From the NCBI GenBank assembly GCA_000004985.1, contig GG739499.1: a stretch of DNA of 1,205 nucleotides; one strand, 5' to 3'. Below the pieces are notes generated by a model. The model made no database searches. It saw nothing but the letters and a program-made list of their open reading frames with translations, and was not told where the DNA came from. Of the stretch, positions 1-1,205 are shown one piece after another. The position numbers and the translations under genes were made by a program. Numbering within the stretch: the first letter of the stretch is position 1; each line of letters opens with the position of its first letter. The stretch is from Naegleria gruberi. Taxonomy: Eukaryota.

Positions 1-127
1 AAATAAAATGTTCATCATATTCATTATTAATGATGGAATGAAGTGAGCAGGAACGAATTTTGGAATAATCATTGTTTCGGATACATTCAACAGCTTCTTC
101 CCATTTCTTCTTATCGGTTGATGCCAT
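1..127 (-). CDS. Partial CDS, N-terminal 42 codons, running off the left edge of the window. It encodes a hypothetical protein beginning MASTDKKKWEEAVECIRNNDYSKIRSCSLHSIINNEYDEHFI and continuing beyond position 1.
   Basis: Reverse-complementing 1..127 by hand puts an ATG at 127..125. It is the first in-frame ATG after a TGA five codons upstream and is immediately preceded by an A7 tract. The frame then stays open for 42 codons to the window edge. G at first codon positions is about 26%, similar to the neighbouring Sel1 gene at about 30%, and the amino-acid mix (K/N/E/D/I/Y) is typical of AT-rich proteomes. The six-frame track omits it because there is no stop inside the window. No Shine-Dalgarno motif lies upstream. 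Confidence 0.42.
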   Translation of the reverse strand, partial: MASTDKKKWEEAVECIRNNDYSKIRSCSLHSIINNEYDEHFI

Positions 128-311
128 TTTTTTTGTTTGTAGTCATTACAAAAATAGTTTATACACGTTTCGAATAATATCAATCAACAAAGGCACAGCT
201 CAGATGGAGAATCTGCGAAAAAGGATCCTAAAAAGCAACATTCAAGAAAGAAACACTCTGAGATTAAAGATGGAAAGTTTATTGAGTAGAAAATTGTCTT
301 CATTGATTTAG
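72..311 (+). CDS. 79-aa hypothetical ORF from the track, probably spurious or antisense.
   Basis: The frame is open for 80 codons including the stop, TAG at 309..311. Only about 13% of first codon positions are G. It uses CG-containing codons (cgg, tcg, acg, cga) that are rare elsewhere in this window, and the protein is S/L/F/R-rich, which is what antisense or non-coding AT-rich sequence tends to give. Positions 72..127 overlap the more coding-like minus-strand start antisense. If it were real, it would be convergent with the Sel1 gene, with the 16-bp palindrome between the two stops. Confidence 0.15.
   Translation: MFRIHSTASSHFFLSVDAIFFVCSHYKNSLYTFRIISINKGTAQMENLRKRILKSNIQERNTLRLKMESLLSRKLSSLI
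158..187 (-). promoter_or_regulatory. Candidate promoter for the minus-strand gene that starts at 127. On the minus strand it reads TTGATT (187..182), an 18-nt spacer, then TATAAA (163..158). The same TATAAA could equally be a eukaryotic-style TATA box.
   Basis: Read directly from the minus strand: cTTTGTTGATTgatattattcgaaacgtgTATAAAc. Against the sigma70 consensus the -35 element matches 4 of 6 and the -10 element 5 of 6, with an acceptable 18-nt spacer. The TATAAA sits 31-36 nt upstream of the ATG. A TAnnTTTG-like motif (TATTTTTG, 156..149) follows. In roughly 70% AT DNA such matches are common by chance. Confidence 0.2.
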
Positions 312-322
312 TGGAATAATGA

Positions 323-338
323 TAAGTTGCTCTTTCAA
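323..338. repeat. Perfect 16-bp palindrome tttcaaatatttgaaa, function unknown. It could be a protein-binding site or a weak AT-only hairpin 3' of the Sel1 gene.
   Basis: All eight base pairs 323-338, 324-337 through 330-331 were checked and are complementary, while 322/339 is not. The palindrome lies 28 nt downstream of the Sel1 stop at 367 and 11 nt after the plus-ORF stop at 311. The stem has a single G:C pair and the minus strand has no T-run after it, so it is not a convincing intrinsic terminator. Confidence 0.55.
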
Positions 339-366
339 ATATTTGAAACTTTGTTTACAGTTTGTT

Positions 367-861
367 TCAATTAATGAAATTTTGGGCTGCAGAGCTTCCA
401 TTCTCAGCAGCTTTTATGATCCATTCCATTGCTTTGCAATAATCATGTTGAACTCCTTTTCCAATAAGGTATAACCATCCAATTTGAAATTGAGCGCATG
501 AATGACCATGTTCAGCAGCTTTTAGAAACCATTCCATTGCTTTTTTGTAATCTTGTTTGACTCCTTGTCCATTTTGATATAAAAATCCAATTTCAAATTG
601 AGAAATTGAATGACCATTGTTAGTAGATATTAAAAAATACTCCATTGCCTTGGAATAATCTTGTTTAACTCCTTGTCCATATCCATATAAACATCCAATG
701 TTGTGATATGATGCTGAATGACCATTTTCAGCAGCTTTTAGAAACCATTCCATTGCTTTGGAATAATCTTTTGTAGCTCCTTGTCCATTTTGATATAAAC
801 ATCCAATTTCAAATTGAGAAATTGAATGACCATTTTCAGCAGCTTTTAAATACCAATCCAT
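367..861 (-). CDS. Sel1-like repeat (SLR/TPR-family) protein, 164 aa, made of 4.5 tandem 36-aa repeats and ending in a TGA stop at 369..367. It is probably the intact 3' portion of a longer SLR gene, because the annotated Met is the repeat-consensus Met.
   Basis: The translation shows four full repeats plus a 20-aa partial repeat, with the M-(D/E)-W-(F/Y)-L-K-A-A-E-N-G-H-S at the start of each unit and I-G-x-L-Y-x-N-G-Q-G-V-K-Q-D-Y-x-K-A at its end. The conserved A/G/Y/W positions give a strong match to the Sel1 repeat consensus (A..W..KAAeqG...Aq..LG.mY..G.GV..D...A). Minus-strand repeat boundaries fall at Met 861, 753, 645, 537 and 429. The antisense strand is full of stops. Upstream of 861 the same repeat continues, but out of frame. 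Confidence 0.8.
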   Translation of the reverse strand: MDWYLKAAENGHSISQFEIGCLYQNGQGATKDYSKAMEWFLKAAENGHSASYHNIGCLYGYGQGVKQDYSKAMEYFLISTNNGHSISQFEIGFLYQNGQGVKQDYKKAMEWFLKAAEHGHSCAQFQIGWLYLIGKGVQHDYCKAMEWIIKAAENGSSAAQNFIN

Positions 862-1205
862 TGCTTTGGAATAATCCTGTTGAACTCCTTTTCCATGCTT
901 GTATAACCATCCAATTTGAAATTGCGATGCTGACCTGAATGACCATTTTCAGCAGCTTTTAAATACCATTCCATTGCTTTTTTATAATCTTGTTTGACTC
1001 CTTGTCCATTTTGATATAAAAATCCAATTTGTAATTGAGAAATTGAATGACCATTGTCTAGTAGCTATTAAAAACTATTCCATTGCCTTGGAATAATCTT
1101 GTTTAACTCCTTGTCCATATCCATATAAACATCCAATGTTGTGATATGATGCTGAATGACCATTTTCAGCAGCTTTTAGAAACCATTCCATTGCTTTGGA
1201 ATAAT
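862..1205 (-). pseudogene. Upstream continuation of the Sel1-repeat array, about three more 36-aa units reaching past the window edge. It is disrupted by one nonsense codon and two frameshifts, so it is either a pseudogenised 5' portion or an assembly artefact.
   Basis: Repeat Met codons fall at 1191..1189, 1083..1081 and 974..972, and the repeat nearest the edge translates cleanly to SKAMEWFLKAAENGHSASYHNIGCLYGYGQGVKQDYSKAME. The lesions, judged against the intact paralogous repeats, are as follows. An in-frame TAG sits at 1077..1075, where the homologous repeat has GAG-TAT and this one has GAA-TAG. There is a 1-nt insertion (c) near 1058. There is a 5-nt insertion near 926-935 (gatgctgaCCTGAatgacc), which looks like a local duplication or gene conversion. 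Confidence 0.5.

Follow-up and report, generated by a model that had tools for sequence, protein, structure and literature searches.

A four-unit Sel1 block carried twice in tandem at the 3' end of an SLR gene, with a frame-broken upstream copy

The window analyzed here, a stretch of 1205 nt that is AT-rich (32% GC), contains the 3' end of an SLR gene whose Sel1-repeat coding strand is the minus strand, and a block of four Sel1 units recurs there in tandem. The downstream block is intact and in frame, whereas its upstream counterpart is interrupted by a stop codon and two frameshifting insertions. The N-terminus and 5' part of the gene lie beyond the right end of the window. We consider it fairly likely that these features have a common explanation, namely that the 3' end of an SLR gene carries its block twice in tandem, that the upstream copy is decaying, and that the contig ends inside a loop of an assembly graph built with k = 127. 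Coordinates of all features are collected in Table 1.

Table 1. Features of the 1205-nt window (positions are those of the window; a dot marks a feature without a strand).
Feature	Position	Strand	Description
Possible start of a downstream ORF	1-126	minus	ATG at 126-124, MASTDKKKWEEAVECIRNNDYSKIRSCSLHSIINNEYDEHFI... (MASTDKKKWEE...); extends past the left edge
AT-rich flank 3' of the SLR stop	127-366	.	16-nt palindrome and minus-strand AATAAA; non-coding as far as can be told
Intact ORF	367-861	minus	164 aa, ~4.5 Sel1 units; TGA stop at 367-369
Block A, units 1-4	391-822	minus	391-498, 499-606, 607-714, 715-822; each exactly 108 nt, in frame
Perfect repeat, first copy	641-767	minus	Longest exact repeat of the window
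Block B, units 5-8	823-1205	minus	823-935 (113 nt), 936-1043 (108 nt), 1044-1152 (109 nt), 1153-1205 (53 nt); frame broken
5-nt insertion, unit 5/6 junction	931-935	minus	TGACC, or equivalently CTGAC at 930-934
1-nt insertion (extra C)	1058	minus	CCATTGTCTAGTAG versus CCATTGT-TAGTAG in block A; shifts the frame
In-frame TAG, unit 7	1075-1077	minus	Block A counterpart TAT (Tyr, 637-639); T-to-G substitution
Perfect repeat, second copy	1079-1205	minus	127 nt, offset 438; ends at the last base of the window

The array is built on a 108-nt ladder that spans positions 391 to 1205. TRF returned a period of 108 with 7.4 copies over 398-1205, as well as a period of 216, and the repeat finder placed unit starts at 391, 499, 607, 715, 823, 936, 1044/1045, and 1153, with spacings of 108, 108, 108, 108, 113, 109, and 108 nt. 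In translation order, the units of block A are of types b' (unit 4), c (unit 3), b (unit 2), and a (unit 1, the C-terminal unit). Block B repeats block A, the offset ranging from 432 to 438 nt, with unit 8 clipped by the window end, and about 1.9 block copies fall within the window, contiguity being as given by the assembly. Units four apart were clearly more alike than neighbors, as in a higher-order repeat, with a mean identity of 93.1% at lag 4 versus 80.8% at lag 1, 83.0% at lag 2, and 82.5% at lag 3. The first-pass annotation, which had described a 108-bp Sel1 unit, a tandem four-unit block, and blocks more alike than neighboring units, was therefore correct on all of these points. The even-numbered units (2, 4, 6, and 8) were also about 90% identical to one another, which accounts for the TRF period of 216 and shows an older two-unit rhythm beneath the four-unit block.

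Several of the finer measurements in that annotation needed adjustment. The offset between blocks, taken there as about 432 bp, has this value only at the start and moves to 437 and then 438, because the right-hand block contains the 5-nt and 1-nt insertions. Gapped alignment of 391-767 with 823-1205 gave 349 matches, 25 mismatches, and 12 gap columns, equivalent to 93.3% identity when gaps are ignored and 90.4% when they are counted, and the blastn self-match (398-767 versus 830-1205) was 91.5% identical. Hence, the reported block identity of 96% describes 499-767 versus 936-1205 (9 mismatches and 1 gap in 269 nt), while for the whole block the figure is 93.3%. The span of 367-1205 assigned to the duplication was slightly too long, since 367-390 comprises the stop and final codons and lies outside the repeated block; the two blocks are homologous from about 391-398 and 823-830 onward. 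The perfect tract, given as ~118 bp (650-767 and 1088-1205), is real but measures 127 nt. At the 78% identity typical between units, a run of 127 matches has a probability of ~2e-14, and the next-longest exact repeat is 46 nt, at an offset of 437. The left neighbors of the two 127-nt copies differ, position 640 being C and position 1078 being T.

Divergence between the two blocks is graded along their length. Identity was 81.7% for unit 1 versus unit 5, 94.4% for unit 2 versus unit 6, 96.3% for unit 3 versus unit 7, and 100% for unit 4 versus unit 8, of which only 53 nt are visible. Across units 2-4 versus 6-8, all 9 mismatches fell in the first 142 nt and 0 in the last 127 nt (P about 0.003 if evenly spread), a contrast subject to ascertainment bias if the perfect tract is the reason why the contig ends there. 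Such uneven divergence fits a conversion or crossover tract that may be younger than the rest of the block. Units 1 and 5 differ far more, in part owing to clusters of multi-base changes at 464-468 and 492-498, and unit 5 is nearer to the a-type unit of a predicted Naegleria gruberi protein, XP_002674559, than to its sister unit 1. Unit types a, b, and c all recur in this protein, hence the types are older than the block duplication. Together with the graded identity, the affinity of unit 5 points to a mosaic history, in which older unit types were followed by duplication of the block, part of which was homogenized later or differently constrained. The first-pass annotation had proposed a recent duplication or ongoing concerted evolution. 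A tandem block whose copies are far more alike than neighboring units does fit unequal recombination and/or gene conversion; a single recent event at a uniform 96%, however, is too simple for identities that range from 82% to 100%. Variation in array length among isolates, as that annotation anticipated, is plausible. The ratio pN/pS between blocks was ~0.5, based on 3 synonymous and 6 non-synonymous changes within the portion that is well conserved, a value compatible with relaxed constraint although the counts are too small to separate this from purifying selection.

The repeats belong to the Sel1 family. Against the Pfam profile PF08238 (Sel1), the 164-aa ORF scored 147.7 bits (cut-off 30.7, E 4.6e-44) in 4 matched stretches, and it likewise matched solved SLR proteins in the PDB (best E 5.9e-87). 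The ORF thus scores above the gathering threshold with several repeat matches, and its tandem units are of ~36 residues, as in the SLR family. From the strong similarity to solved SLR proteins, an alpha/alpha solenoid fold would be predicted. Frame analysis of the window identified 367-861 as the sole open frame of the array. Because it starts at a conserved Met within a repeat (AMDW), this ORF is not a complete gene but the C-terminal part that remains of a longer array. The earlier description of the duplication as lying inside an SLR gene thus stands with respect to the Sel1 units, but not if it is taken to mean one intact frame, given that block B contains the TAG and the +1 and +5 insertions and that only 367-861 is open.

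Relative to both block A and the N. gruberi protein, block B has three disabling lesions (TAG, +1, and +5), as would be seen in a pseudogene. None of the three (0/3) is a change in homopolymer length. The two insertions sum to +6, restoring the frame past unit 6, and leave unit 6 (~36 codons) out of frame, where the frame of the gene contains TAA and TGA. In another frame, this same unit encodes a perfect Sel1 unit, and its DNA matches that of the in-frame unit 2 at 94%. Deleting 1058 and 931-935 gave back a clean Sel1 translation, and the repaired translation aligned to XP_002674559 across the repaired +5 site, with 76/103 residues identical. Hence, the insertions are derived changes in former coding sequence. 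Around the 5-nt insertion, window positions 926-945 read GATGCTGACCTGAATGACCA, in which the inserted TGACC is the same as the TGACC four bases on (equivalently, CTGAC is followed by CTGAA). This context suggests that the insertion may have come from local slippage or misalignment.

Judged from its sequence, the locus as assembled is probably a decaying or truncated paralog or pseudogene rather than a gene for a functional long SLR protein. The distribution of 3 lesions in block B versus 0 in block A is not statistically distinctive (~0.125 under equal rates), and the 495-nt downstream frame remains open, which is somewhat unexpected for a long-dead gene. Three other causes of the broken frame were considered and rejected. 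An intron does not explain an out-of-frame stretch that is itself a perfect Sel1 unit with 94% identity to unit 2, and no GT...AG pair gave a clean splice. An alternative genetic code, with TAG and TAA read as sense codons, does not accommodate the TGA that the out-of-frame unit adds in the frame of the gene, and the ORF itself ends in TGA. Programmed frameshifting was discarded as neither 1058 nor 931-935 lies in a slippery or simple-sequence context.

The lesions could also be artifacts. If the block duplication is real and the TAG, +1, and +5 are sequencing or consensus errors, then the gene would be intact and would encode a long functional SLR protein with a variable repeat number. The return of the frame after one unit, by insertions that sum to +6, would suit this explanation, as would the perfect Sel1 unit that each out-of-frame piece still encodes in its own frame and the 164 open codons downstream. 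We nevertheless consider it improbable. The three lesions are independent of each other and lie within ~150 nt, none being a homopolymer-length error, and both a 5-nt insertion and a stop-creating T-to-G substitution are atypical of read errors. If the contig came from a k-mer assembly, as the 127-nt terminal repeat suggests, then error k-mers would normally have been discarded. Furthermore, the gene model of the closest relative likewise closes on a frameshifted unit (QAWKRS), which suggests that this family contains broken copies.

The right end of the window bears on how the array was assembled. A k-mer of 127 is the largest in routine use by SPAdes/metaSPAdes and by the meta-large preset of MEGAHIT, and a contig that circles a de Bruijn loop, halted on revisiting a node, ends with exactly k repeated bases. 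The 127-nt tract that finishes at the last base looks like the pattern left by a k = 127 de Bruijn assembler halted in a loop, and the window looks like a whole contig. The warning in the first-pass annotation about short-read assembly of such repeats thus appears to be borne out, to the extent that the terminal tract is a guide. In that case, the loop would correspond to 641-1078 (438 nt, 146 codons), k would dictate how long the perfect tract is, and both contexts of the 127-mer (C at 640, T at 1078) would be real. The contig would then end because the assembler could not resolve the block number, and random read errors would be an unlikely source of the lesions, as these lie within the looped part.

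Such an ending also raises the possibility of a chimera, in which two paralogous or allelic SLR sequences, identical to each other over stretches of 127 nt or more, were joined in one path, with no molecule carrying two blocks 438 nt apart. The second perfect copy, being exactly 127 nt long and ending at the last base, is what a loop or branch in a k = 127 de Bruijn graph would leave, SLR genes belong to multi-paralog families, and an unseen paralog with a common 127-mer inside 768-1078 could make the path chimeric. However, 641-1205 contains no further exact repeat longer than 46 nt, hence the path between the 127-mer copies is an unbranched k-mer chain in this sequence, which supports a true tandem period of 438 nt. 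The differing left neighbors of the 127-mer copies imply at least two genomic contexts, and the 25 differing positions and the indels between blocks show that one read set was not used twice. We therefore regard a chimera as unlikely and prefer a genuine tandem arrangement.

To place the locus phylogenetically, we compared its translations and DNA with sequence collections. The closest protein was N. gruberi XP_002674559.1 (NAEGRDRAFT_70287), at 78% identity over 81 aa as is and 76/103 after frame repair. Best protein identities elsewhere reached 58% in Mortierellaceae fungi, 56% in metagenome contigs, and 53% in bacterial/archaeal genomes, while viral contigs gave a single protein match at 37%, the last three collections being searched by protein-guided scan. 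Searches with the frame-repaired 276-aa translation and with the downstream ORF retrieved nothing nearer than the N. gruberi protein, and an exact-product look-up found no record of the 164-aa product. At the DNA level, no match was found in phages by blastn or in viral contigs and JGI metagenome contigs by exact-pattern scans, and a 25-mer present four times in the window had no match in 185,579 species genomes (GTDB, one genome per bacterial/archaeal species). Plasmid blastn returned only distant SLR genes, with identities of 64-82% in short stretches, including some from Psychrobacter and Legionella. We take a Naegleria-like eukaryote to be the most likely source of the locus, with which its AT-richness, the TGA stop, and a minus-strand AATAAA beyond that stop are compatible.

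Legionella, Helicobacter, and amoeba symbionts commonly carry SLR proteins, and the weak DNA similarity (64-74%) to SLR genes on Psychrobacter and Legionella plasmids could be taken to indicate a bacterial or viral gene for an SLR effector or surface protein, with repeat-number change or frameshifting acting as a contingency switch for phase or antigenic variation. This is highly improbable given that protein identity is 53% (bacterial/archaeal) and 56% (metagenome) versus 74-78% for N. gruberi, that the 25-mer was absent from the species genomes, and that phages and viral contigs were empty but for the one 37% match. Promoter-like sites were no more frequent than in shuffled sequences, and the only terminator-like match from the bacterial promoter/terminator scan fell inside the coding repeats. 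A contingency locus is further at odds with the position of the indels at 1058 and 931-935, outside homopolymer or microsatellite runs. The designation of the product as a surface or effector-type protein in the first-pass annotation was therefore not upheld, as the closest relative is a eukaryotic protein, the best bacterial and metagenomic identities do not exceed 56%, and the N-terminus lies outside the window.

Downstream of the array, the flank offered few recognizable elements. A perfect palindrome, TTTCAAATATTTGAAA, lies at 333-348, ~20 nt 3' of the SLR stop on the minus strand; being AT-only and loopless, it does not make a convincing terminator, and none other was found in the flank. 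A minus-strand AATAAA at 278-283, ~85 nt past the TGA, is compatible with a eukaryotic polyadenylation signal but could easily occur by chance at 30% GC. No RNA family scored above its Rfam threshold in the window and no tRNA was detected there. A non-coding RNA or tRNA was thus rejected as an explanation of the repeats, the lone miRNA-model match scoring 20.4 bits versus a gathering score of 51. The ORF that may begin at position 126 had no homolog in an index of 5.8 billion proteins and no Pfam match beyond noise.

We propose the following order of events for the array. Three unit types make up a four-unit block, b'-c-b-a in translation order, which is carried twice in tandem. The doubling may have occurred by unequal homologous recombination or by replication slippage between in-register units, followed by partial homogenization through gene conversion. 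The upstream copy would since have gained the TAG stop and the two frameshifting insertions. Finally, the stop of the contig at 1205 was very probably caused by the assembler re-entering a 438-nt graph loop at k = 127, in which case the true block number could be higher than that visible. Any repeat or block count taken from this contig would accordingly be a lower bound. For annotation, the stretch should not be called as a single long SLR protein, given that its open part is limited to the final 164 codons, the upstream block being disabled.

Among known proteins, XP_002674559.1 was the nearest match. It shares unit types with the window (...QFQIGWLYKHGKGV..., ...ASYHNIGCLY..., and ...IGFLYQNG.G.KQDY...) but is only 131 aa long, has a non-repeat N-terminal part, and presents its units in the order b-a-c without a b' unit; it represents a different locus from the window. 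Its C-terminus reads ...NIGCLYQAWKRS, where QAWKRS results when the LYKHGKGV DNA of an a-type unit is read in the +2 frame, hence the N. gruberi gene model also seems to enter a frameshifted or chimeric unit. Translated out of frame, the window also yields the peptide MVIQAWKRSS (ORF 836-946, minus strand). The frameshifted end of XP_002674559 is a hint that broken or chimeric copies arise in this SLR family.

Taken further, this could mean that a Naegleria-like amoeba maintains an SLR family with rapid turnover, in which 36-codon units and four-unit blocks are amplified, converted, and recombined out of register, generating new binding surfaces together with many frame-broken or chimeric copies, in a birth-and-death repertoire comparable to the fungal HNWD/NLR WD-repeat genes. 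The array itself might then hold many more 438-nt blocks. This scenario is speculative, and we think it has only a slim chance of being right. If the window does come from a Naegleria-like amoeba, then it provides one data point on eukaryotic SLR families.

The solved SLR proteins (8sxq, E. coli C5321 4bwr, human SEL1L 8kes, H. pylori HcpC 1ouv, and HcpB 1klx) belong to the same repeat family (E 5.9e-87 to 4.7e-07) and share with the window units the 36-residue SLR consensus G-x-LY..G.GV.QDY.KA..W..KAAE.G. Unlike these intact proteins, whose N-termini and partners are known, the window contributes an open C-terminal fragment only. Hcp proteins carry regular cysteine pairs, and the translation of the window does not contain pairs of this type.

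Repeats visible in DNA also occur among distantly related SLR loci. Internal direct DNA repeats of at least 200 nt with at least 85% identity were found in 12 of 160 such loci, mostly as single-unit ladders. Two were block-wise, namely L014, with three units (about 325 nt, 86%), and L091, with two units. L014 (2906-3855 of the metagenomic contig Ga0255753_1000002, 34% GC) is an intact 653-aa SLR gene with a long non-repeat C-terminal domain. It resembles the window in that its SLR array is repeated block-wise in the DNA; it differs in having an intact frame, a 3-unit block, and a lower block identity, and the two share 46% protein identity.

Across repeat families, typical indels comprise two, three, or more units, such that arrays gain or lose units in blocks and units n apart are the most alike (Bjorklund, Ekman & Elofsson 2006, as summarized in PMC5100051). 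That account describes the process at the protein level and across families, whereas in the window the event is seen in DNA (93-100%) and one copy has already been disabled. The window is thus an instance of a known phenomenon, the block-wise growth of solenoid repeat arrays, at the high-identity end, caught young enough to show in DNA.
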